DNA of 64,000 bases from Thermoplasmata archaeon (GCA_003552585.1 PUNK01000015.1:12513-76512), one strand, 5' to 3'; positions 3,178 to 60,999 are shown, counted from the stretch's first letter. Notes: generated by a model not told the origin, from the letters alone. A program made the numbers and translations.

Positions 3178-4971
3178 TCACGATTTTTTATTCCCAATAT
3201 AAGCAACGACCCAAATGGATAAAAGCAAAAAAGCGATTAGATAACTCCTACTTGATATTGGGGGTTCGTATGTTCCTTCAGGGATAATTTGTTCTCCGTC
3301 ATATATCGTATCTGGTTCTTCGTCAGGTGCCTCCTCAAGAGTAAGGGTGTAGATTCCATAATCACCTTCAAGCTCAGCCAAACCGTTATTAGGTGCATAG
3401 ATCCCCACATAATATTCACCAGGGGCTAATATTACTTCATCGTCCATGATGTGAAGGCTAGGATTCTGGAAGGGATATCCTTCTGTAGTTATTGGAATCG
3501 TTGGATAAGTTTCCTTTCCCACGTGAATACTCGCATTAAGATGCCTAGAAGATTCTAGGGATAAACGCGAATTGACACTCACCTCAACCCTATAAAGATC
3601 TCCAGCACCCCTTCCCTTATATTTGGTGAGTGTTCCATAATTCATTTCGTGTTCCTCTTCCGACAGATAGTACCTTGAAACATCCTTAAGTGAACCATCT
3701 TCTCCCATCACAATGACATGTCCGAATTCGTATCGATCGAAAAAAAGCTCTTCTGCTACTCTCCGATAATTGTGTCGTGATGTGAAGCACTCTCCTAAAG
3801 GCATCCAAAATATGGGTTCTTCGACATACCATTCCGCATTCCATTCATCAGCATCGAAAACATACCATCCTCCCGGGTTTTCAGCCCAATCTTTTTGATA
3901 AAGTGACTCCTCTAACCACACTTCAACCATGAAGTGGCCCATCAATTCGACCCCCTCTGCAGGGTGAATAGACGCAACTCTAGCAGGGATTCCGATAGAC
4001 CTAAGCAATGATGTTAAAGCCCATGATGTTTCGTCACACCAGCCGTTGATCAATTTAGACTTTTCAGTTTGATCGTAATTTTCAATTTCGGGAATCGTTT
4101 TACCGTTTTGAGATAATATTTCAGCATCTTCTAATGTGAGTCCCACATATTCGTAACTCTCCTGATGGATAACCGTCGTTCCATTACCAAATAAAATCTG
4201 AGAAGAATCTCTTATGATCGGTTGTTGATCAAAATCACTAGGACTTGCTATGTTCCTTTGTGCCACTACCCTATTTAAACGAACTGCGGCTTCCTGAGTA
4301 TCCTCTGACCCAGCTACTGCAGCCAAAGCAAATTCGTACATATCTACCCAACCGGGCCTATCATCGCCAAAAGGTCTTAAAGTGCCTTCATACGCCTGGT
4401 GGCCAGTTGTGTAAATATAATCATTTTCGTCTCTAGTCCCTTCCTCATCATAAGCGTATGCCCTCAGCTTTTCTTCAGCTATCCCCATATTAGCTGGATC
4501 AAAAATAACAAGTATATCGATCTCAGTTTGATTACCACGATTATTGGTTATAAAGGTATATCTCCCAACATCTGCGTGATCAGGTATGTCAACTATCCAG
4601 CCCCAGTTCTCCCTCTCTATACTCAATTCAGTCATATCATCACTGGCTGGAATTATCTCGCTATCCTCCCCATCACCGTATATCTCCAACTCAGTTCCCC
4701 TCCTGATCACTGCATGGGAAGTAGCTACAGTTATTTTATCTCCATCATTAGTAGGGACATTTTCCCAGCAGTTATATTTTATCGTCATGTATTCTTCCAT
4801 ATATGGGATGTAGACGGGAAATTGTTCTTTGGGTTCTTCGGTGATAGTAGAAAATTCTTCCGATATTACGATATCATTAGAAGAAGATAGGGGATGAGAC
4901 AAAGAAAAAAAGGATATTAATATAACAAGTAATATCAGTCCCTTGACAACACGTTGGGTTTTTCGAAACAT
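3178..4971 (-). CDS. Secreted, membrane-anchored transglutaminase-like cysteine protease domain protein
   Basis: N-terminal signal/TM segment and C-terminal TM anchor. Core GWCDETSWALTSLLRSIGIPARVA...H..VEVW resembles the transglutaminase-like Cys-His-Asp fold. Confidence 0.5.
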   Translation of the reverse strand: MFRKTQRVVKGLILLVILISFFSLSHPLSSSNDIVISEEFSTITEEPKEQFPVYIPYMEEYMTIKYNCWENVPTNDGDKITVATSHAVIRRGTELEIYGDGEDSEIIPASDDMTELSIERENWGWIVDIPDHADVGRYTFITNNRGNQTEIDILVIFDPANMGIAEEKLRAYAYDEEGTRDENDYIYTTGHQAYEGTLRPFGDDRPGWVDMYEFALAAVAGSEDTQEAAVRLNRVVAQRNIASPSDFDQQPIIRDSSQILFGNGTTVIHQESYEYVGLTLEDAEILSQNGKTIPEIENYDQTEKSKLINGWCDETSWALTSLLRSIGIPARVASIHPAEGVELMGHFMVEVWLEESLYQKDWAENPGGWYVFDADEWNAEWYVEEPIFWMPLGECFTSRHNYRRVAEELFFDRYEFGHVIVMGEDGSLKDVSRYYLSEEEHEMNYGTLTKYKGRGAGDLYRVEVSVNSRLSLESSRHLNASIHVGKETYPTIPITTEGYPFQNPSLHIMDDEVILAPGEYYVGIYAPNNGLAELEGDYGIYTLTLEEAPDEEPDTIYDGEQIIPEGTYEPPISSRSYLIAFLLLSIWVVAYIGNKKS

Positions 4972-5022
4972 CTTTCTATTAACTAGGTTGGTTGAATAAA
5001 TAATTTATGAATTCATGCGAAA

Positions 5023-6795
5023 ATGAAATATACCATTGTACTCAATGATTCGTTAATGGCAGAAAATGAAAAAATAAAATGGCCATTGATAAATTCTATA
5101 AAGGGCATGATATTTCAAGCAGTAGAATTCTTTGAAAAGAAGAAATTCACCCCTTTAACAGCTTTTATCTTTTTAGTTATCTTAGGCATAATAAGATCGG
5201 TGACCGAATCTATATGGTTTGAATACCGTGTTTTTTCCTTGTATCTCATAGTTCAGCACACCGCTTTTAATTTTCCAGTATTAGTGATGGGGGTTCTTAT
5301 TTTATCAATAGCTAGTAAAACCTCTCTAATCAAAGTTTACAACGCGGTCCTTCTAGGCTTCGTGTTGGTCATAATGCCGCCTTTTATGGATTATTTTGTT
5401 TTAGGGCAGTACGGTGCTGAGTACAGTCATCTATATGCATATTACGCTGCTGAATTTTCTTTCATCGATAAAATTCCGGGTATAAATCCCATAATTATGC
5501 TTACCTCAGAAGAGATCAGTGCAGGTCTTAGGAGGATGGTTCTATCTATAATGACATTCAGTGCTTTTTACATCGCAATTAAGATTGAAATATGGGACTT
5601 GTTCACTTCCACCTCTAAAAAGATTTGGCATAAAATTCTGAAAAAATTTTCTGCTCTCTATTTTGGGGTGTTTGGGATTTGGTTGGTAGTTTGGTTCATA
5701 AGCAACATCGTTCCTTCTGTTATAAGTATGGAAGAAAAAGGAATAGTAGTTATGGATTATTTTGTATTTAGGCCTTATAGCAAATATTATGTTTTTATGC
5801 TGGAGCATGGATATACGGAAACAGAAGTATTTTCAGAGGAAGGATTTAACATGGCTTACAGCCTTTTATTACAACAGCGTTCTTTGTTCGTCACAATGTT
5901 TTTCTTTTTACTCACAATAACAATGATCCTATTATCCCTTTATATTTTACATAGGACTTTTTTGAAAAAAACACTAGCATCTTTAAAAGTACCATTACTT
6001 ATTTCTACCACTTTTTCTGCACTGCTAGGCTCTTCTGTAATTCATCTGATTGATCCCGATTTTAGCCAAGGATTAGCTCTAGATCCATCCTATGTGCTTC
6101 ATTTTCCATACATTTTTTACATCGCTATCATGGGATTTTTCTTGGGCTGTTTTGGTTCTTACATCATTCAATTCAAAAACGAAGAACGTATAATTTCTAA
6201 ATATAAGGCCAAACAAATGGCCATCATTTCTCTATTAGGGGGAGGTTCCTTCGCATTCCTAATGGGACCTTTTAGAGCACTACCTATTTTTTTAATTTGT
6301 GCTGGCTTGATCTATCTTGCTTTTAAAGATGGTGAATACATTTTTAACTTTGGAAGATCAGCTCTATTTTCTTTAGCTTGTATGTTGTCTTTCTTTATTG
6401 GTGTTAATACTCCAGATGTCTGGAGACTTACTGTAATTGACCATGGTAGTGTAGGTACACTTACTCTAGCTAGAAATCCTCAATTAACCGGAGAGATTCT
6501 TGGTCTAGCATTGGTCATTTTCACAGTTGTATTTTTGATAACGTACCTACCGACCCTACTTGAAAAGTTGAACATGTCTCACGAATTCCCTGTTTCTTTG
6601 GTATTTCTTCCTATCTTTTTCATACCCCTCTTATTTTATTGGACTCTTGGGTTACTCACAGTAATCGGCTCGTTGGGGGTAATAACTTCAATTCTTTACA
6701 ATAAAGAACTTCATCTCTTTCCCCTGAGCACATTGATGATAGGGATGAGTTACTTGATTCTAGAGTTGTACGGTCTAGCCCCCTCAATTTTATAA
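5023..6795 (+). CDS. Polytopic integral membrane protein of unknown function (more than 12 predicted TM segments)
   Basis: 590 aa, almost entirely hydrophobic helices. No recognisable catalytic motif. Confidence 0.45.
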   Translation: MKYTIVLNDSLMAENEKIKWPLINSIKGMIFQAVEFFEKKKFTPLTAFIFLVILGIIRSVTESIWFEYRVFSLYLIVQHTAFNFPVLVMGVLILSIASKTSLIKVYNAVLLGFVLVIMPPFMDYFVLGQYGAEYSHLYAYYAAEFSFIDKIPGINPIIMLTSEEISAGLRRMVLSIMTFSAFYIAIKIEIWDLFTSTSKKIWHKILKKFSALYFGVFGIWLVVWFISNIVPSVISMEEKGIVVMDYFVFRPYSKYYVFMLEHGYTETEVFSEEGFNMAYSLLLQQRSLFVTMFFFLLTITMILLSLYILHRTFLKKTLASLKVPLLISTTFSALLGSSVIHLIDPDFSQGLALDPSYVLHFPYIFYIAIMGFFLGCFGSYIIQFKNEERIISKYKAKQMAIISLLGGGSFAFLMGPFRALPIFLICAGLIYLAFKDGEYIFNFGRSALFSLACMLSFFIGVNTPDVWRLTVIDHGSVGTLTLARNPQLTGEILGLALVIFTVVFLITYLPTLLEKLNMSHEFPVSLVFLPIFFIPLLFYWTLGLLTVIGSLGVITSILYNKELHLFPLSTLMIGMSYLILELYGLAPSIL

Positions 6796-6858
6796 CTATT
6801 GCACATATATGCAACAATAAGACATATATATGAGTAATCTTAGTCGGCCGCCGGTAAG

Positions 6859-7296
6859 ATGAAAAGATTGAAAACAAAACACATGGACGAAAGTGGAGCA
6901 CTAGAAGGATTGCCTCTATATCTGATCATACTTGTAACGGTGGCAGGTATCGGAACAGCCATTGTAGTTGGTTGGATGATGGGAGCATCTTCAACCGAAT
7001 TAGGAAGAATAGAGATAGATGAAGACGATAGGTTAATTACCACACAAAGTGGCCAAACTCTTAGGATTAGAGCTTATGACCAGGATGACAATTCCCTAGA
7101 AGGAGCTGTTGTCAGTCTTGAGGGTTGTGAAATTACCGAAATCAAAGAAACTGGTTCTGATGGAGAAGCTACGTTTTCCAATGTAAACCCACATCTTCCT
7201 TCAAACACAAATTTTGGAACTATCAAGGTCACGGTAACATACACTGGCAGTGTAACAACTACTAGAACTGCGCAAATTTCAGTTCAACACAGTTGA
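6859..7296 (+). CDS. Small membrane-anchored protein with a pilin-like N-terminal hydrophobic segment and a C-terminal Ig-like/CarbopepD_reg-like beta domain
   Basis: N-terminus KRLKTKHMDESGALEGLPLYLIILVTVAGIGTAIVVGW, C-terminus AVVSLEGCEITEIKETGSDGEATFSNV..GTIKVTVTYTG. The stop overlaps the start of the downstream ATPase (ATGA). Confidence 0.4.
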   Translation: MKRLKTKHMDESGALEGLPLYLIILVTVAGIGTAIVVGWMMGASSTELGRIEIDEDDRLITTQSGQTLRIRAYDQDDNSLEGAVVSLEGCEITEIKETGSDGEATFSNVNPHLPSNTNFGTIKVTVTYTGSVTTTRTAQISVQHS

Positions 7297-8618
7297 TGAC
7301 AAAGGATTGGAACATGGATCTAGATACAATCGTAGGACGTTCAACATCATCGGCATCTCTATTCGGAAATGAAGGATGTTGTTATCTGGGCAGGAATGTT
7401 TCCTATCCTGGTGGTGAATACGAAGAGATGGGGAGTACATTCTTAGATATAGTATCACCCCATTGTATGCTCGTCCTTGGTAAACGTGGGACGGGAAAAT
7501 CTTATACATTAGGTGTACTAGCAGAGGGTTTTCTAGAACTTGAGAAAGGATGTTCAGAAAAGATAGCAGTGGTTATCGTAGACACTATGAGTGTATTTCA
7601 CAGCCTTAAAACTGCCAACTTCAATAAAAATGAATTGAAGATCATGGAGAGATTTGGAATAGAACCGAATGCTCATCCCGAAAAGGTAAATATACTCGTA
7701 CCTGAAGCTGCAGTAAAAGATGCTAAAAATGAAGGAAAGGAATTTCATTACGATGGTATTCTGAAGCTTCGGTTGGCCTCCGTGGAGGTTCACGATTGGC
7801 TTAAAATTTTTGACCTATCAATAACAGAACCTGTAGGTTCTTTGTTATGCCAGACTATAAGTAGTTTAAAAAATTTGGGTCCCTTTTCTTTTCAGGAGTT
7901 ATACAAGGAAATAGAGCAATTTGATGCTGAAGATACGCATCTTCGTTCTTTGAAGGGTTTGTTCAAGATGGTAGAAGAACTCAATATATTTTCAAAAGAA
8001 GGATCTAAATTACAAATTGCTCAAGCTGGAAAAGTGACCGTTCTAGACATATCATATCTTGGTAGGTTAGGCAGTTATGACCTGAGAAGCCTTGTAGTAG
8101 GCCTATTTGCAAGGAAAAAGATGGCAGAAAGAACGTTGTATGCATCTGTAGAGATGCAGTCACAGGCAGGATTGGTAGAATCAGACAGCTCTTCGGATAT
8201 CACTCAAAGTCATCCTCTGATCTACATGTTTATAGACGAAGCTCATCTCTTTTTACCATCAAAAGATGAAACTATGGCTTCATCACCTCTTATGGACTGG
8301 ATTAAACTTGGAAGGCACCCGGGCCTCTCTCTAATCCTAGCAACTCAGGAACCTTCCGCCCTCCACCCAAGTGCGATCCGTCAATCCGATTTTATTCTTT
8401 CACATAACCTTACAGCAAAGGATGATGTAGAGGCACTGGGGAAGGCAACTCAATCATATATGTCTGAAGGCATCGATAAAATGGTAAGCCAGATGGAGTT
8501 TAGAAGAGGACTTGCTCTTCTTTTCGATGATAAAACGAGAAGTACACAGTATTGTATGGTAAGGCCAAGAAGAACTTTACACACTGGCGTAGATGCATCT
8601 GCCTTACCAGAGAAGTGA
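7293..8618 (+). CDS. HerA/FtsK-superfamily P-loop ATPase (DUF87-like)
   Basis: Walker A LVLGKRGTGKSYTLGVLAEG and Walker B LIYMFIDEAHLFLP, then LILATQEPSAL. 441 aa. Translationally coupled to the upstream membrane protein. Confidence 0.6.
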   Translation: MMTKDWNMDLDTIVGRSTSSASLFGNEGCCYLGRNVSYPGGEYEEMGSTFLDIVSPHCMLVLGKRGTGKSYTLGVLAEGFLELEKGCSEKIAVVIVDTMSVFHSLKTANFNKNELKIMERFGIEPNAHPEKVNILVPEAAVKDAKNEGKEFHYDGILKLRLASVEVHDWLKIFDLSITEPVGSLLCQTISSLKNLGPFSFQELYKEIEQFDAEDTHLRSLKGLFKMVEELNIFSKEGSKLQIAQAGKVTVLDISYLGRLGSYDLRSLVVGLFARKKMAERTLYASVEMQSQAGLVESDSSSDITQSHPLIYMFIDEAHLFLPSKDETMASSPLMDWIKLGRHPGLSLILATQEPSALHPSAIRQSDFILSHNLTAKDDVEALGKATQSYMSEGIDKMVSQMEFRRGLALLFDDKTRSTQYCMVRPRRTLHTGVDASALPEK

Positions 8619-8718
8619 CCCTTTAGATGAAATAACATCATAATACTAACAGGTTATATGTTAAAGGGAAGTGTAATACACACCAATAATAAAATACCTC
8701 TTTGCGATATAACCATAC

Positions 8719-9498
8719 ATGAGATTACTGCGTGATAAAAAATCTTTAACGAAGTTCCTTCTACTCTATAAAATGGCTACAGATGAGCCTACCAGGCTCA
8801 TAGAACTTGCAGATAGTTTGGATATGAGTGAGCAAGCAGTATCCAATTATGTATCTACTATGGAGGAAGAAAATCTAATCAATACGGGCGGGAAAAGATA
8901 TAAGCCTACACATAAGGGCATGGACTTTATAGAAGAAATCTTCTCTAAGCTAGGAGACTTTTTAGAGAGCGCTAGTAAAACTATAGATGTCATATCCACG
9001 TGCGCAGCAATAGCGGGGGAACCTATACGTAAAAATGACAAAGTTGGTCTTTTCATGAGAGATGGATTCCTACATGCCTCCAATAAAAAAACGTCGTCGA
9101 TCGGCATTGCACTCAATGATGCGGATACTGGGGAACCATTGCTTGTTGGATATCTCCAAGGTATAACCGAGATGGATGTTGGATGCATTTTTCTTATCTC
9201 TGTTGCCCAGAAGAATGAGGTAGAGGAGATCACTAGAGACCTAAAACAGAAATTGGATTCGATAGAATATGATATACTGACAGTAGAAGAAGAATGGACT
9301 CTTGGATTAGCTAACATGATAGATGCGGATGCCAATATAAAATTCGCGCCTATTTCAGCTTCATTAAGAGCTGCAGAAAAAGGACTTGATGTAGCCTTTA
9401 TCCTTACAGAAAACAGTTTGGAAAGAACCATATCCACAATAAGCAGATGGAACAGTGGATGTGCTGAGAAATATCACATAAATTACAAGATAGTTTAA
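8719..9498 (+). CDS. Winged-helix transcriptional regulator with an uncharacterised C-terminal domain
   Basis: N-terminal wHTH-like region (TRLIELADSLDMSEQAVSNYVSTMEEENLI). The C-terminal 170 aa has no recognised motif. Confidence 0.4.
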   Translation: MRLLRDKKSLTKFLLLYKMATDEPTRLIELADSLDMSEQAVSNYVSTMEEENLINTGGKRYKPTHKGMDFIEEIFSKLGDFLESASKTIDVISTCAAIAGEPIRKNDKVGLFMRDGFLHASNKKTSSIGIALNDADTGEPLLVGYLQGITEMDVGCIFLISVAQKNEVEEITRDLKQKLDSIEYDILTVEEEWTLGLANMIDADANIKFAPISASLRAAEKGLDVAFILTENSLERTISTISRWNSGCAEKYHINYKIV

Positions 9499-22240: not shown

Positions 22241-23890
22241 TTGAAGAAATATACATTTAACGGCTATATAAAGGCAGAGGTTGAAGGACAGTTAGAAGGC
22301 TATCTAACTTTAAAGGATGGTATGCCTCGAAATGCAGTTCTTTATCCACCTGCAGGAAATGAAATAAAAGGGCAGTCAGCTCTCAAAAAGATCAGGGACA
22401 TGGATAACATGGAAGAGCTCAGGATCCAGGTTCACACAAATGTAGATATAGATTCACTAATATCTAGTATCCCTGGTAAAATTCCTGTGCAAGCCATCGA
22501 GGAAAGTCAAGAAGATACGTTGAAGGTGGAAGGAGAGAAGAAGACTGCAGAAAGAAAGAAGTTGGAGGAGGAGCTAGAAAGCAGAATAATAGAACAAGAG
22601 ATGAAGGAATCTAAGGTCGCTGAAAAAGAGATAGAGGTCTACGACACTTTGATCAAAGAAAGAAGAGGTTTGAAAAGTGAAGAACCTGGTAAATTTCCCG
22701 ACAAATTCTCATTTGAGAACTTCGTTGTTGGTCCAAATAACAAGTTTGCATATGCTGCTGCTAGGGAGATTGCTCGATTTCCAGGTGATTCGTTTAATCC
22801 TCTTTTTATTACAAGTTCTTCAGGTTTGGGGAAAACTCATCTTCTAAAAGCTATAGGCAACTATCTAAAGAAAAGAGATCATGATTTGGAAATTAGTTAT
22901 CTTACAGCCTCGAATCTTTCGTCCATTTTGTCTAATCAAGATATAAAAGAGCTAAAAGAAGAGGTAAATAAAGCTAACGTCCTTCTATTGGACGATATAC
23001 AGTTCCTAGCTAATAAAATAGATCTTCAGGACGAAGTATTTCATATTCTAAATAACTTATTAGAAAAAAAAGGACAGGTTGTTCTGACTTCTGATCGGCC
23101 TCCCGACCAGATACCTTCCCTGCAAGACAGGATGGTGACTCGCTTCAAATCAGGGTTGGTAGTTGATATCAGACCACCTACATTTGAAACCAGGGTATCA
23201 ATAATCGATAAAATACTTAAAGAATATGACATCAAAGTTGAGCAAGATGTGAAGGAGTACATCGCTCGCCATGTGAAAAAAAATGTGAGGGAGCTTGAAG
23301 GTGTTTTAAACAGGATTCTGGCCTTTTCTTCCCTCCTTGAAGAAGATATAAGTAAAGAAGTGGTTAAAGAAAGTCTTAAACACTATTCTGACGAGATCGA
23401 TAAAGGTGAAAAGAAAGTCAGTTCGTACACCTTTAAAGTCGGTAGAAGTTATCTGATAGAGGAAAGAAGACCTGATAAAGGATTTGAAATACTTAAAGGT
23501 ATGAGAGATGATGGAAAAACTTACATTTTCTCCCGTCTGAATCCTAATAGGATAAAGGAGGATTATGGAGTTAAAGATAGTGAGATTTATTGGTTGACAT
23601 CCCGTGATAGTCAAAATTATATAACAGTTTCTCCGAACTTAGAGAATCTGTCCTGGCGTCTCGAAGATTTACTAAAAGAAGATGGAGTAGTACTGCTTGA
23701 TGGACTAGAATATCTTATCAGCAATACTGGATTTGAACCTACTATACAGTTCTTGCGACATATGATAGATATGGTATCAGAGACGGAAACTGTATTCTTG
23801 TTGACCGTCAGCCCCGACGCTCTTGAACGCAAGCATGTAAGCATTTTAGAAAGAGAGATGGAAGTAATTTCAGAAGAGGATAGTTTATGA
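22241..23890 (+). CDS. Bacterial DnaA-like AAA+ ATPase (domain III only) fused to a novel coiled-coil N-terminus and an archaeal DUF835-like C-terminal domain
   Basis: FENFVVGPNNKFAYAAAREIARFPGDSFNPLFITSSSGLGKTHLLKAIGNYL (Walker A), LLLDDIQFLANK (Walker B), VLTSDRPP (sensor I), RFKSGLVVDIRPPTFETRVSI (box VII) and NVRELEGVLNRI (sensor II) are near-identical to the bacterial DnaA consensus. No domain IV HTH. The C-terminus VVLLDGLEYLISNTGFEPTIQFLRHMIDMVSETETVFLLTVSPDALE resembles DUF835. Confidence 0.72.
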   Translation: MKKYTFNGYIKAEVEGQLEGYLTLKDGMPRNAVLYPPAGNEIKGQSALKKIRDMDNMEELRIQVHTNVDIDSLISSIPGKIPVQAIEESQEDTLKVEGEKKTAERKKLEEELESRIIEQEMKESKVAEKEIEVYDTLIKERRGLKSEEPGKFPDKFSFENFVVGPNNKFAYAAAREIARFPGDSFNPLFITSSSGLGKTHLLKAIGNYLKKRDHDLEISYLTASNLSSILSNQDIKELKEEVNKANVLLLDDIQFLANKIDLQDEVFHILNNLLEKKGQVVLTSDRPPDQIPSLQDRMVTRFKSGLVVDIRPPTFETRVSIIDKILKEYDIKVEQDVKEYIARHVKKNVRELEGVLNRILAFSSLLEEDISKEVVKESLKHYSDEIDKGEKKVSSYTFKVGRSYLIEERRPDKGFEILKGMRDDGKTYIFSRLNPNRIKEDYGVKDSEIYWLTSRDSQNYITVSPNLENLSWRLEDLLKEDGVVLLDGLEYLISNTGFEPTIQFLRHMIDMVSETETVFLLTVSPDALERKHVSILEREMEVISEEDSL

Positions 23891-48943: not shown

Positions 48944-50521
48944 TTATCGGATAGGAACAAGTGATATCCAAGGACTGCCCTTCTCTTCGTCGGTTACGAT
49001 AGCATACAATCCTGTTTTTGGTTTTATTCCATAAATACAGGGAGTTTTGCCGATGGATGTGACCACAAAATAGGTGTCCGCCATGTTTTTTATTTCTGGT
49101 TTTAGCTGAAGACCATGTTTTATGATACCTATTCCTAGATTTTTTGATATCTTTGTATTGGCCACCGCTTCAAGGAGGTCTTTGATGGCCATCTCATCTC
49201 CCATCAAATACTCCAAAGTGTCGAAGCCAGTGTAATCGATCATAGGGGTTTTTCCGCCATCAGTAATCTCGTTGATCTGCTGATTGTAAATCTTTCCAAC
49301 TTGGTCTCTTTTTTTGCCCCCTAATGCCATCATATAAGGATTCTCAGTGCTTGAGGAGAAATAATCTACTATCCTAAACCTGCTGTCAAATACGTCCTCA
49401 GATATGAAACGTGTGAGATCCTCCCTCAAATTATCTGGATGAGTTCCACCGGAAAGTACACCGAGAATCCCTCTATTTTGAGTCAGGAAATTAAGGAAAA
49501 TTGGTCTCAAAACGGAGAAGTATTCTTCAGTACTAACATCTTCCATAATTTCAAAAACGTTGTAGCTGCCTTTTTCAAATCCTCCTTCGAGTAACTCATC
49601 TAAGTCAGTAGTACCAGTGCTGTATTTGTGTTCCTTGTCATTGATCGGTTTCCACTCCTTATGCTCTTCAACACTAACTCTATAAGGTTCGAAACACGTA
49701 AACCTGCCCCCGTAAAGGGTCATAAGATAAGTAGGCTGTTTGATACCAATACCTCTTAATTTCTTCAACTGTATTTGTCTGACGTCTCTGTTTTCGATCT
49801 GAAACCTTTCAAGTTTTATGACACCATCGACCAGATATTCAAGAGCTCTAGCATCTTCTTTCTCTAAAACCAATAGAAGATTAGTTCCTGAATTCTCGAC
49901 TAGGTCCTTCTGAAGAGTCATTATAAAAGTTTCCGCATCAAGACCATATTTATGAGTTAATCCTTCAACACTGTCGATAACTAACATCGTCCTTTCAGGA
50001 AGAATTTTATCAATACGATCATAGATCCGTTCAAGTCCCGGAATCTTTTTATCTAGTCCTTTAAGCATCGTTCTGTTCACTTCTGTAGGCATCTCATCCG
50101 TCTCAATAGTCCCAAGGAACTGTTTTGCAGATTCGATCTTCTTCTTTTCAGATTCGGGTAATTCTTCCTCCTCTTCCTCGATGTCTCTATATAATGTTTC
50201 TAGAAAGACTTTGCTCGAATCAACAATTCTGTTTTTCATCTCTTTTTCTTCTAGCCAGGGAAATTGTTGGTAAAGACTGTGGTCTGAAACCCTTGTAGAT
50301 AAATAAAAGCTACGATCAGGATCGCCGACCTCCTCTATAAGTTGAAGTGAAAGTGTGGTTTTACCTGTCCCAGCAGTACCTTTAACCATAAGAGAGGAGC
50401 CGCCTTTTTTCCCGATAAAATTGATGACCTCTTTAGGGATGGCTATATCGTGTTTACTTTTGCTATCTCGAACTACATCCATCTTTTTATTTTTTATTGG
50501 CTCAGATTCCATTTTCTCCAC
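48944..50521 (-). CDS. Double-domain KaiC-like (RecA-superfamily) ATPase
   Basis: N-domain Walker A MVKGTAGTGKTTLSLQ. A second KaiC-like domain has a degenerate P-loop. 525 aa. Confidence 0.68.
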   Translation of the reverse strand: MEKMESEPIKNKKMDVVRDSKSKHDIAIPKEVINFIGKKGGSSLMVKGTAGTGKTTLSLQLIEEVGDPDRSFYLSTRVSDHSLYQQFPWLEEKEMKNRIVDSSKVFLETLYRDIEEEEEELPESEKKKIESAKQFLGTIETDEMPTEVNRTMLKGLDKKIPGLERIYDRIDKILPERTMLVIDSVEGLTHKYGLDAETFIMTLQKDLVENSGTNLLLVLEKEDARALEYLVDGVIKLERFQIENRDVRQIQLKKLRGIGIKQPTYLMTLYGGRFTCFEPYRVSVEEHKEWKPINDKEHKYSTGTTDLDELLEGGFEKGSYNVFEIMEDVSTEEYFSVLRPIFLNFLTQNRGILGVLSGGTHPDNLREDLTRFISEDVFDSRFRIVDYFSSSTENPYMMALGGKKRDQVGKIYNQQINEITDGGKTPMIDYTGFDTLEYLMGDEMAIKDLLEAVANTKISKNLGIGIIKHGLQLKPEIKNMADTYFVVTSIGKTPCIYGIKPKTGLYAIVTDEEKGSPWISLVPIR

Positions 50522-50526
50522 CTACT

Positions 50527-50952
50527 CTATCTTTTGAATTCCTTTGATTCTTCAATGCTCATTGCAATTTTTGATAAATCTTTCATGAGCTTATTTTTTT
50601 CAGATGTTTCGCCTAACAATGAAAGAACTGCATTCTTTCCAACACCTTTGATTAACAATATATCTTCATCCGAAGATACCTCTACTATTTGGGGCTCGCT
50701 TTTATCAAAACTCGCAAATATAACGTCAGAAGCACCCAATATAGTTGCGGATAGTGCACTAAAACTCTCGTTTTTTTCCTGCTTTTCCATTTTTGTAGCT
50801 AGTGGAATGCCATTCTTCGAAGCAAGTACTAAGGCTTCCATATAATCATGGAAATTCTCTTCAAATATTGACTCGACCTCTGTTTTTATAGTGATAGTTC
50901 CACGCTCCTGTGGTTTGTAAGAATTCTTAATAAGGGTAGATGATGTTAACAT
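50527..50952 (-). CDS. Roadblock/LC7 (MglB-like) domain protein
   Basis: 141 aa, LC7-like alpha/beta pattern (ALVLASKNGIPLA...ILLIKGVGKNAVLSL). Confidence 0.45.
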   Translation of the reverse strand: MLTSSTLIKNSYKPQERGTITIKTEVESIFEENFHDYMEALVLASKNGIPLATKMEKQEKNESFSALSATILGASDVIFASFDKSEPQIVEVSSDEDILLIKGVGKNAVLSLLGETSEKNKLMKDLSKIAMSIEESKEFKR

Positions 50953-60459: not shown

Positions 60460-60999
60460 ATGTCCCTTAGAAAAAAGGAGATACGGGGTATCCTACTCAA
60501 TGGTTTACTTAGATTCGTTAAAAGAAAGTGGGGGATTCAGGGACTAGAAGAATGTAAAAAAAAGAACGAAATAGGAGGTGAAATACAGGATGGTTTGTTT
60601 TATCCTATAAGTGTTTCATTTGATATACTAGAATGGATATATACAAAAAAAGGTGAAAATAAAGTGATAGAAGCTGGACGTTATCTAGTTAACGATATGG
60701 GATACATATCATGGTTGATTGATCCTGAGGGCGGTGAAGAAACTCTTGTACAATTCGAAGACGTACAAAATGAAATGTTTAACTTCAATCCAATTTCAAT
60801 AATCCACAATGAAAATAAAGTGAGATTTGAACTTGAAAGCTTTTACGACACAGAGTTATTTTACCTATTCACACAGGGTATTATAGAAGGTCTGTTAGAG
60901 AGGATTGAGCTTGAGGGAGAAATGGCTAAAAGAATGTGCGATACTTCTAAGGAATCAGCACAGTATTTATTCGAAATAAATTTTCCAGACCATCAATAA
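60460..60999 (+). CDS. Hypothetical protein
   Basis: ORF only. Confidence 0.3.
   Translation: MSLRKKEIRGILLNGLLRFVKRKWGIQGLEECKKKNEIGGEIQDGLFYPISVSFDILEWIYTKKGENKVIEAGRYLVNDMGYISWLIDPEGGEETLVQFEDVQNEMFNFNPISIIHNENKVRFELESFYDTELFYLFTQGIIEGLLERIELEGEMAKRMCDTSKESAQYLFEINFPDHQ

Follow-up and report, generated by a model that had tools for sequence, protein, structure and literature searches.

A conserved gene pair for a pilin-like protein and a HerA-type ATPase

Within a 64-kb stretch of DNA from a Thermoplasmata archaeon (hereafter the window), a gene for a 145-residue pilin-like membrane protein runs directly into a gene for a P-loop ATPase of the HerA clade (6859–8618, hereafter the pair). 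The pair is a bicistronic module conserved in a halophilic Thermoplasmata lineage, and paralogues of its ATPase lie in operons resembling those of type IV pili (T4P). The best explanation we can offer, to which we give an even chance of being right, is that the enzyme serves a type IV filament-like system as an accessory ring ATPase of the HerA type, dedicated to the pilin-like protein. ATPases of this subfamily are repeatedly accompanied by pilin-like proteins and T4P core genes, and we therefore read the pair as a pilin/accessory-motor sub-module.

The ATPase family comprises 334 loci in species-representative genomes (GTDB), from which a sample of 80 loci was drawn (84 loci in the tblastn set). 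Open reading frames (ORFs) were called in all loci, and the ATPases were sorted into groups according to their identity to the query and their place in a neighbour-joining tree. Group A (55–66% identity) comes from Thermoplasmata; group B (45–56%) comes from Thermoplasmata and Methanomassiliicoccales-like metagenome-assembled genomes (MAGs) and is often co-resident with group A in one genome; a DPANN group stands at 32–36%. Using tblastn, we detected a homologue of the 145-residue protein in 39 of the 84 related loci, and in 30 of the 34 group A loci it stands immediately upstream of the ATPase gene on the same strand. The small ORF is conserved alongside the ATPase; had it not been, this would have refuted the reading given in a first-pass annotation of the window, made from the sequence alone. 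This adjacency recurs in 31 loci in all, with gaps of −4 to 151 nucleotides (nt), and proteins with a single N-terminal transmembrane (TM) segment make up 31 of 107 near neighbours compared with 3 of 177 far ones (p=7e-12). Chance does not explain the adjacency, and the pair is a conserved module.

Two layouts mark sub-lineages of group A. In layout 1, genes for an RNase Z-like protein and a diadenylate cyclase (DAC) come before the pair and PurL/PurS after it, while in layout 2 the pair is flanked by large surface proteins and by one to four DUF2378-like genes. The pair is kept as the other neighbours change, as a comparison of the window and loci L006, L018, L007 and L013 with the DAC-PurL type shows; the window itself follows an arrangement of its own. 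The loci of layout 1 (L001, L009–L011, L014–L016, L022, L026–L031, L033 and L054) have an RNase Z/Apyc1-like metallo-β-lactamase and the DAC on the same strand as the pair, with Hef encoded divergently ~2.9 kb upstream. The DUF2378-like proteins (~175 residues) occur in one to four tandem copies directly 3′ of the ATPase gene in 16 of 33 group A loci (L006, L007, L012, L023, L071 and others); the sole copy in the window lies at 60460–60999 (+), 52 kb from the pair.

The two genes might also be neighbours without functional coupling, one encoding an ordinary anchored surface protein with an immunoglobulin (Ig) domain and the other an independent cytoplasmic HerA paralogue engaged in DNA repair or another task. 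This would agree with the placement of the two products on opposite sides of the membrane and with the want of a platform gene in group A loci; the housekeeping neighbours (DAC, RNase Z-like, PurL/PurS) likewise allow that synteny may in part be slow rearrangement within one clade. However, the adjacency persists where all other neighbours change, and the two genes overlap at stop and start. In addition, homologues of both recur together, in a different order, within group B operons that carry T2SSE and TadC-like genes (L038, L046 and L047), and unrelated pilin families stand beside the ATPase in DPANN archaea. Taken together, these points make independence of the two genes quite improbable.

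The small protein has a type IV pilin-like anatomy

The 145-residue protein begins with a basic tail, MKRLKTKHMDES (residues 1–12), and has a single hydrophobic segment. Its N-terminus reads MKRLKTKHMDES-G13/A14-LEGLPLYLIILV, with G13 directly before the hydrophobic domain; here and below, a slash marks the putative processing site. The motif ALEGLPLYLIIL and the hydrophobic helix make up residues 14–40, and an Ig-like β sandwich spans residues ~46–145. An AlphaFold2 model built with 15 homologues (pLDDT 80) places the helix at residues 18–38, followed by a sandwich of seven to eight strands at residues 46–143. Sequence and model thus both bear out the earlier description of a pilin-like protein with a class III-signal-like N-terminus and an external Ig-like domain. 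In Pfam, Big_1 and CarboxypepD_reg match the protein only below threshold. A public annotation begins the protein at Met9 (137 residues); we favour the start at 6859, because all homologues have a basic tail ahead of the G-ALEGLP motif.

Conservation along the protein is strikingly uneven. Across 37 distinct family members, identity is 23% in the tail, 81% over G13–M40 (G-ALEGLPLYLIILVVIAGVGTAIIVGWM) and 44% in the Ig-like domain, and L15–L25 is invariant even in members whose globular domain is only 26–31% identical. G13 is conserved in 34 of the 37 members, and position −2 is K, R, E or D in 25 of them. In class III signals, processing takes place ahead of the H-domain, position −1 is G, A or S, and position −2 is charged (PMC4371748). 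In our protein, a charged N-terminus is followed by glycine at −1, a ~20-residue H-domain and a β-rich domain, and G13/A14 is likely a prepilin-type processing site. A variable charged tail, glycine at −1, a highly conserved H-domain and a diverging β domain, as read from the alignment, are the hallmark of type IV pilin-like proteins.

The ATPase is a short member of the HerA clade

The ATPase matches the Pfam families DUF87 (PF01935; 1.9e-10, 41.7 bits, cut-off 23.2) and HerA_C (PF05872; 23.7 bits, cut-off 22). Its Walker A motif GKRGTGKS, its Walker B motif FIDEAH and the block KLGRHPGLSLILATQEP are invariant in 28 homologues, as are D315, E316, H318, R341 and Q352 in the same alignment; within KLGRHPGLSLILATQEP, R341 is a candidate arginine finger and Q352 a candidate sensor. 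The family also shares an invariant C-terminal tail, RPRxTLHTGVDA. The Walker B/Arg block aligns with ...EEAH...GRKYG...SQRPS of HerA, and profile-to-PDB matches were confined to this Walker B/Arg-finger block. No TM segment is present. The AlphaFold2 model of the monomer (pLDDT 87, pTM 0.88) has ~50 residues, forming three strands and one helix, before the P-loop strand. When the model was compared with the PDB using Foldseek, the best 50 matches were all HerA or HerA-like (TdpA), with cellular HerA first and defence-system HerAs after it, the best being HerA of T. kodakarensis (9x1m, 1.1e-18) and of S. solfataricus (4d2i, 9e-17; TMq 0.63). By its motifs, Pfam thresholds and fold, the ATPase falls within the FtsK-HerA superfamily as a member of the HerA clade, in agreement with the DUF87/HerA-FtsK assignment and the Walker motifs given earlier.

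Within that clade, the protein is neither the HerA of HerA-NurA nor CedB, CedD or VirB4. Scores against the NCBIfam HerA equivalogs NF040819 (17.7 bits, cut-off 970) and NF040937 (19.5 bits, cut-off 800) are far below threshold, as are those against CedD (22.4 bits, cut-off 600; 4e-5), CedB (16.5, cut-off 700) and VirB4 (11.9, cut-off 643). No Pfam match to NurA was found among the eight flanking proteins, nor among the annotated conserved neighbour families of the related loci. The first-pass annotation had argued that this is not the canonical HerA-NurA pair and had proposed a profile search to place the ATPase; both scores and neighbours uphold the former, and the latter leads to the HerA clade.

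The family is sizeable yet entirely uncharacterised. A hidden Markov model (HMM) search of the whole library returned 2614 clusters at E<=1e-3, 739 at <=1e-10 and 240 (50%-identity clusters) at <=1e-30. Relatives include tandem duplications and fusions to winged helix-turn-helix (wHTH), DUF835, S8 protease and nuclease-like domains, and in P0266, P0270 and P0295 (~DPANN-level similarity) the sequence is interrupted directly behind Walker A by an intein, in some cases with a LAGLIDADG endonuclease. In view of these inteins, duplications and diverse fusions, we consider the short HerA-like clade to be broad, with many partner types. Metagenome loci of a wHTH-fused relative represent mixed, more distant subfamilies with mixed neighbours (PPIase-like membrane proteins, PglZ-sized genes); class III-signal proteins stand near a few of them (L090, KG/QVT; L110 and L133, Q/AAMEFL). 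The nearest sister in cultured organisms is a haloarchaeal DUF87 family of 387–391 residues and 1634 proteins, 31% identical to the window ATPase. It always occurs in a module of a 1334-residue protein, a PglZ-like protein, the ATPase and a GNAT protein (L085–L088, from a Haloplanus plasmid and the chromosomes of Halobacterium litoreum and Halogeometricum), and on the Haloplanus plasmid the 1334-residue protein is annotated with a BREX ATP-binding domain. This PglZ-linked four-gene module is probably an uncharacterised defence system related to MADS/BREX.

These relatives bear on the idea that the pair serves antivirus defence or abortive infection, in which, as in HerA-Sir2, HerA-DUF4297 or MADS/BREX-like systems, a HerA-type sensor or scaffold would control a membrane effector. 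Among the PADLOC models, the ATPase matches MADS mad8 best (3.5e-15, over nearly its full length) and several defence HerA models next, the haloarchaeal sister family sits in PglZ-like modules, and fusions to S8 protease or nuclease-like domains occur among more distant relatives. However, PADLOC found no effector match in four neighbours (the small protein, the wHTH protein, the 590-residue membrane protein and the transglutaminase-like protein), and the partner, with its external Ig domain and pilin-type N-terminus, is not built like a pore former or toxin. Within each sub-lineage of the loci sampled, the housekeeping neighbours are constant, and the gene is kept at ~60% identity across many species, rather than being patchy in defence islands; no mobile-element genes flank the pair, the GC content is uniform, and paralogues are located in pilus operons. 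A role in defence is therefore very improbable in our judgement.

Membrane-containing viruses of the PRD1/STIV lineage pair a packaging ATPase with small TM proteins, and the pair could in principle be the remnant of such a virus, with an A32/FtsK-HerA-type packaging ATPase and a small membrane portal protein. Its ATPase has weak similarity to the STIV packaging ATPase B204 (E 0.013 to 0.003). Against this, a search of 50,697 phage and virus records gave one marginal match (22% identity, 1e-5), no capsid, integrase or other viral genes lie nearby, the gene is vertically conserved and its full-length fold is that of cellular HerA, leaving a viral remnant extremely improbable. An origin from a provirus or plasmid was likewise rejected, given the one marginal phage match and an only good plasmid match to the Haloplanus gene of the PglZ-linked sister family, which is also chromosomal.

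Paralogous ATPases lie in type IV pilus-like operons

In group B, the gene for a protein with 9–10 TM segments (690–710 residues) ends 0–40 nt before the ATPase gene in 15 loci (142 nt in one). Since all 13 of these proteins tested match Pfam T2SSF (best 1.1e-6), we assign them as TadC/FlaJ-like platforms. A T2SSE ATPase (PF00437, 3.7e-22) is encoded ~2 kb upstream of the HerA-type ATPase in 13 loci, with a Cys-rich N-terminal domain that is either fused or separately encoded. Two to four small proteins, each with one N-terminal helix, are encoded downstream or divergently upstream of the HerA-type ATPase. Their motifs, which resemble that of the 145-residue family, include ERG-ALEGLPLYMIIL, EEG-VEGIPFKLIII, RG-IEGLPMKLVII, EKG-VAGFFLDLPVLL and ERG-ILTVMDALVFIL, with ERG-ALEGLPLY among the ERG forms; the 145-residue family profile matches four of the proteins (6e-46, 8e-37, 5e-37 and 5e-7). 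Large CARDB or Ig-like surface proteins are found near the paralogous loci. To judge from its gene content, group B is a full type IV pilus-like operon plus a HerA-type ATPase, and in the neighbour-joining tree group A is nested in the T4P-linked clade of Thermoplasmata.

Similar neighbours appear in DPANN archaea. LamG proteins with KSKG/VSTLISS-type N-termini adjoin the ATPase in L061, L066, L069 and L076, and a protein beginning MKKG/ISPIISAVVL (Arch_flagellin 1.7e-6) adjoins it in L068. In L067 and L070, proteins with KRKG/LSPLVAAVLL (Arch_flagellin 3e-5, Pilin_N 6e-4) and HKG/ASIFISAVLL are followed by T2SSE and TadC-like genes; the Arch_flagellin and Pilin_N matches of these DPANN pilins are sub-threshold. 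In several DPANN lineages the direct neighbour of the ATPase is thus a canonical class III-signal protein, and unrelated pilin families adjoin one and the same ATPase family. The first-pass annotation had left the choice between secretion, DNA uptake or transfer, and surface-filament assembly. The operons of the paralogues with their T2SSE, TadC-like and pilin genes, together with the DPANN pilin neighbours, favour a link to type IV filaments and leave DNA transport open.

A gene string found in ten Nanohaloarchaeota loci (L060, L063, L064, L068, L072, L073, L075, L077, L080 and L083) encodes, in order, an Hjc-like protein of 159 residues, a ~203-residue protein with 3–5 TM segments, the ATPase, a ~173-residue protein with 3–4 TM segments, Hef and a ~340-residue protein. 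Both polytopic membrane proteins are without family assignment.

The main rival explanation is pilus-coupled DNA transport, in which the HerA-type ring would move DNA while the pilin-like protein serves as an external pseudopilus or as a DNA- or cell-binding part, much like the Ups pili with CedB/CedD of Sulfolobales or the pseudopili of bacterial competence. In fold, the ATPase comes closest to HerA of T. kodakarensis and S. solfataricus, both DNA translocases, and CedB and CedD, to which it has the weak NCBIfam matches given above, are HerA-clade ATPases required together with a T4P (Ups) for DNA import (PMC11868833). Genes of DNA metabolism are also found nearby: Hef lies 70–600 nt 3′ of the ATPase in 16 Nanohaloarchaeota loci and at the ~2.9-kb distance described above in 16 group A loci, and an Hjc-like gene lies upstream of the ATPase in Nanohaloarchaeota. 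Moreover, relatives carry wHTH or nuclease-like fusions and some have P-loop inteins, like many DNA-metabolism proteins. On the other hand, no conserved membrane DNA channel (CedA/VirB6- or ComEC-like) lies beside the pair, the neighbouring 14-TM protein is not conserved and has no family match, and the CedB and CedD scores are far under their cut-offs. Hef is absent from the window and in group A lies on the opposite strand, several genes off; its sharing by two lineages could be chance, estimated at ~5–10% given the families inspected. DNA transport thus remains unlikely in our view, though it is the alternative that we take most seriously.

A model for the pair

In the arrangement we favour, an accessory ATPase serving a pilin-like protein, the pair would derive from a type IV pilus-like gene set comparable to the group B operons. 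The short basic tail of the small protein would stay in the cytoplasm, the glycine before the near-invariant helix would be the site of a prepilin peptidase, the helix would provide the interface to a filament or platform, and the Ig-like, adhesin-type domain would be displayed outside the cell. The soluble, short and catalytically intact ATPase would form a ring, by analogy with HerA, and this ring may dock on the cytoplasmic face of a TadC-like platform encoded elsewhere in the genome. There it could act as an accessory motor or gate for the pilin-like subunit, inserting it into a filament or surface array, extracting it or turning it over. FlaH, the neighbour of FlaI/FlaJ in the archaellum, and VirB4, which acts on VirB2 pilins, would be parallels. 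The setting of the pair, with housekeeping neighbours and uniform GC content, also speaks for this arrangement.

Several observations weigh against it. Position −2 of the window's own small protein is serine and not a charged residue, no Pfam match to the curated pilin families Pilin_N, Arch_flagellin or Class_IIIsignal was found, and fold searches with the protein returned generic Ig domains and no solved archaeal pilin. By the anatomy of its sequence and the neighbours of its homologues the protein appears pilin-like, yet it is outside every curated pilin family. No T2SSE or TadC-like gene was found within ±8 kb of any group A locus or in the 64-kb window; the T4P link of the pair is therefore one of paralogy, and the pair must act in trans. 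For the same reason, the earlier picture of a self-sufficient small secretion module does not hold for the window. Most loci of Nanohaloarchaeota have polytopic membrane proteins, the Hjc-like protein and Hef beside the ATPase in place of pilins. Prepilin-type cleavage would leave no cytoplasmic part of the small protein, so any contact with the ATPase would be indirect. Finally, the HerA-clade enzymes studied to date act, to our knowledge, on DNA or as scaffolds for nucleases and NADases, not on pilins.

A bolder version joins both functions: a HerA-clade translocase would be an integral, unrecognised part of a T4P-like machine of Thermoplasmatota and DPANN archaea that couples the pilus to DNA transport across the membrane. 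We regard this as distinctly unlikely. If true, it would amount to a single-operon archaeal apparatus for competence or DNA exchange, merging what are the separate Ups and Ced systems of Sulfolobales, with the window pair as a pilin/motor sub-assembly dedicated to it. Should the ATPase move DNA, the module becomes a candidate DNA-uptake or exchange system in Thermoplasmatota and in the host-dependent DPANN archaea, bearing on how these organisms acquire DNA and attach to partners.

Gene layout and surroundings

ORF calling recovered the three ORFs that had been described (Table 1), with the ATPase having 440 or 441 residues depending on the start: TTG at 7293 (441 residues, 4-nt overlap) or ATG at 7296 (440 residues, 1-nt overlap). 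The ATG is the more likely start; an identical database protein, P0001, has 440 residues and begins there. The stop of the small gene, TGA, lies at 7294–7296. The junction reads cagTTGATGaca and the ATPase start region ...caacacagTTGATGaca; the stop/start overlap reported earlier is present as TGATG and indicates translational coupling of the two genes.

Table 1. Positions in the window of the pair, its sequence motifs and the gene that follows.
Feature	Position	Strand	Basis
145-residue pilin-like surface protein gene	6859..7296	+	ORF calling, AlphaFold2 model, family alignment
HerA-clade P-loop ATPase gene, 440 residues	7296..8618	+	Pfam, AlphaFold2, Foldseek; 441-residue ORF 7293–8618 if TTG start
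Winged-helix protein gene, 259 residues	8719..9498	+	ORF calling; sub-threshold Pfam matches
TATA-box-like element ATATATAT	6824..6831	+	Read from sequence, ~30 nt before ATG 6859
Stop/start overlap TGATG	7294..7298	+	Read from sequence
Walker A GKRGTGKS, residues 63–70	7479..7502	+	Translation; invariant in 28 homologues
Walker B FIDEAH, residues 313–318, then KLGRHPGLSLILATQEP	8229..8246	+	Translation

The spacer 5′ of the small gene is 63 nt long and contains ATATATAT, which is likely the promoter of the two-gene operon, whose transcript would be nearly leaderless; the pair probably has a promoter of its own. The spacer between the ATPase gene and the HTH gene is 100 nt long with another AT-rich element, and the HTH gene probably has its own promoter as well. 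Its 259-residue product has Pfam matches that are all sub-threshold: HTH_45 (25.4 bits, cut-off 25.5), HVO_A0261_N (PF25213; 22.3, cut-off 35), MarR and DUF7839 (23.4, cut-off 27). These weak matches, a wHTH followed by a C-terminal DUF7839, come in the order expected for HVO_A0261-like regulators. The first-pass annotation had closed its module with this winged-helix regulator; a gene with sub-threshold wHTH matches does follow the ATPase, but tblastn found no homologue of it in the 84 related loci, and we rejected it as a conserved regulator and part of the module. Some related ATPases have a fused C-terminal wHTH, a weak hint of a link to this gene, although the 259-residue protein lacks specific similarity to those extensions (phmmer E>0.3).

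Upstream of the pair, divergent genes at 3178–6795 encode a 597-residue surface protein with a transglutaminase core (−) and a 590-residue protein with 14 TM segments (+, 5023–6795). The latter has no Pfam, NCBIfam or PADLOC match and was rejected as a platform for the pair (hhalign against the TadC-like family, probability 0.14%); its homologues occur near the pair in three close relatives only among the 84 loci, at times not adjacent. The transglutaminase-core and 14-TM genes are kept together in the close relatives L018 and L057, with no tie to the ATPase pair. On the minus strand at 1–~1680, an ORF of at least 580 residues with a signal peptide and repeated CarboxypepD_reg-like Ig domains runs off the start of the window; this domain make-up marks its product as a large protein of the cell surface.

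The window is ordinary archaeal chromosome with a uniform GC content (0.36–0.43). It encodes a CCA-adding enzyme, TBP and an XPD-type helicase (Pfam), and probable genes for MCM and Ile-tRNA synthetase were recognised from their sequences. Close relatives come from Thermoplasmata MAGs, of which several carry the name Candidatus Saliniplasma or Natronoplasma. No Rfam families or tRNAs were found in the window, and no repeats in its positions 1–1800. Two further genes deserve mention. A 549-residue protein (22241–23890, +) fuses a bacterial-type DnaA ATPase domain (PF00308, 4e-54) to an archaeal DUF835 (1e-24), and DUF835 turns up again in fusions with distant relatives of the HerA-like ATPase (P0331, P0337). 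A KaiC/GvpD-like ATPase of 525 residues (48944–50952, −; GvpD_P-loop 5e-16, KaiC 1.7e-13) adjoins a 141-residue Roadblock/LC7 protein, ~40 kb away from the pair; both families are named as T4P-associated regulators by Makarova et al. 2016.

Comparison with known systems

The closest structural match of the ATPase is HerA of HerA-NurA, with which it shares the P-loop core, Walker A, Walker B and the GR...Q(R/E)PS blocks. It differs in its ~15% identity, in its length of ~440 residues compared with 500–580 and in its N-terminal region, which in the AlphaFold2 model is only ~50 residues (three strands and a helix) where HerA has its HAS barrel. No NurA, Mre11 or Rad50 gene lies near the window ATPase, and the partner is a pilin-like membrane protein instead. 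The HerA defence systems (Sir2-HerA/Nezha, DUF4297-HerA, MADS mad8 and the haloarchaeal PglZ-linked DUF87) use the same ATPase clade, whereas the window pair is without an effector enzyme, lies in a conserved housekeeping context and involves pilin-like partners. A role in a filament machine would be unexpected for a family otherwise known from DNA end resection and phage defence.

A precedent for an ATPase other than T2SSE in pilus biogenesis is VirB4, an FtsK-HerA-superfamily enzyme that handles the membrane-embedded pilin VirB2. The VirB4 scores of the window ATPase are insignificant, however, VirB2 is a helical hairpin and not a helix with an Ig domain, and no other genes of a type IV secretion system are present. 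The Ups and Ced systems (CedA/A1/A2, CedB and CedD) offer an archaeal parallel in which ATPases of the HerA clade work at the membrane together with a type IV pilus. Unlike the window ATPase, to which sequence similarity is marginal, CedB and CedD have TM segments and VirB4-like N-terminal domains. Furthermore, the pilin of Ced (CedA1) is VirB2-like and its channel (CedA) VirB6-like, with Ups and Ced in separate loci, while the small protein of the window is modelled as a helix and an Ig domain, not as a helical hairpin like CedA1. In the archaellum, FlaH (ArlH) is a second P-loop ring protein of the RecA/KaiC-like type, encoded beside FlaI (T2SSE-type) and the FlaJ platform. Its position and function may be analogous to those of the HerA-type ATPase in the group B operons, although FlaH belongs to the KaiC/RecA family, not to FtsK-HerA, and has no sequence relationship to the window ATPase.

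The paralogous loci resemble the archaeal Tad-like T4P, especially subclade 4F of the census by Makarova et al. 2016, in having T2SSE, in some loci with a Cys-rich domain, a TadC-like platform and small helix/β proteins; the census notes a Cys-rich N-terminal domain of the ATPase for subclade 4F. The tripartite, class III-like N-terminus of the 145-residue protein is a further likeness to archaeal T4P, while its G-ALEGLP motif differs from the Pilin_N/DUF1628 and QxxxEY types, and the window pair stands alone, without T2SSE ATPase or platform genes. In the sections of the census that were searched, a HerA-type ATPase was not found as a component of any T4P model. Its Supplementary Table S4 does, however, give arCOG00280 ('HerA helicase') a value of 20 under a heading that we take to be a count of T4P neighbourhoods; the main text is silent on it. 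Among the examples is a 354-residue arCOG00280 protein of Haloarcula hispanica, encoded divergently from a predicted major pilin of subclade 4F (arCOG02981).

We found no description of an association between a HerA-type ATPase and a pilin-like protein in a shallow literature search that left out most subscription journals, and such an association may already be described outside the reach of this search. As far as it goes, both the presence of a HerA-type ATPase in a type IV filament system and a pilin-like partner for a subfamily of the HerA clade appear to be new. Archaeal type IV filaments are thought to run on one T2SSE-type ATPase, at times with KaiC/FlaH- or MinD-type accessories; if our reading is correct, a HerA-type ring tightly paired with a pilin-like protein would be a new class of motor or gate for type IV filament machines.

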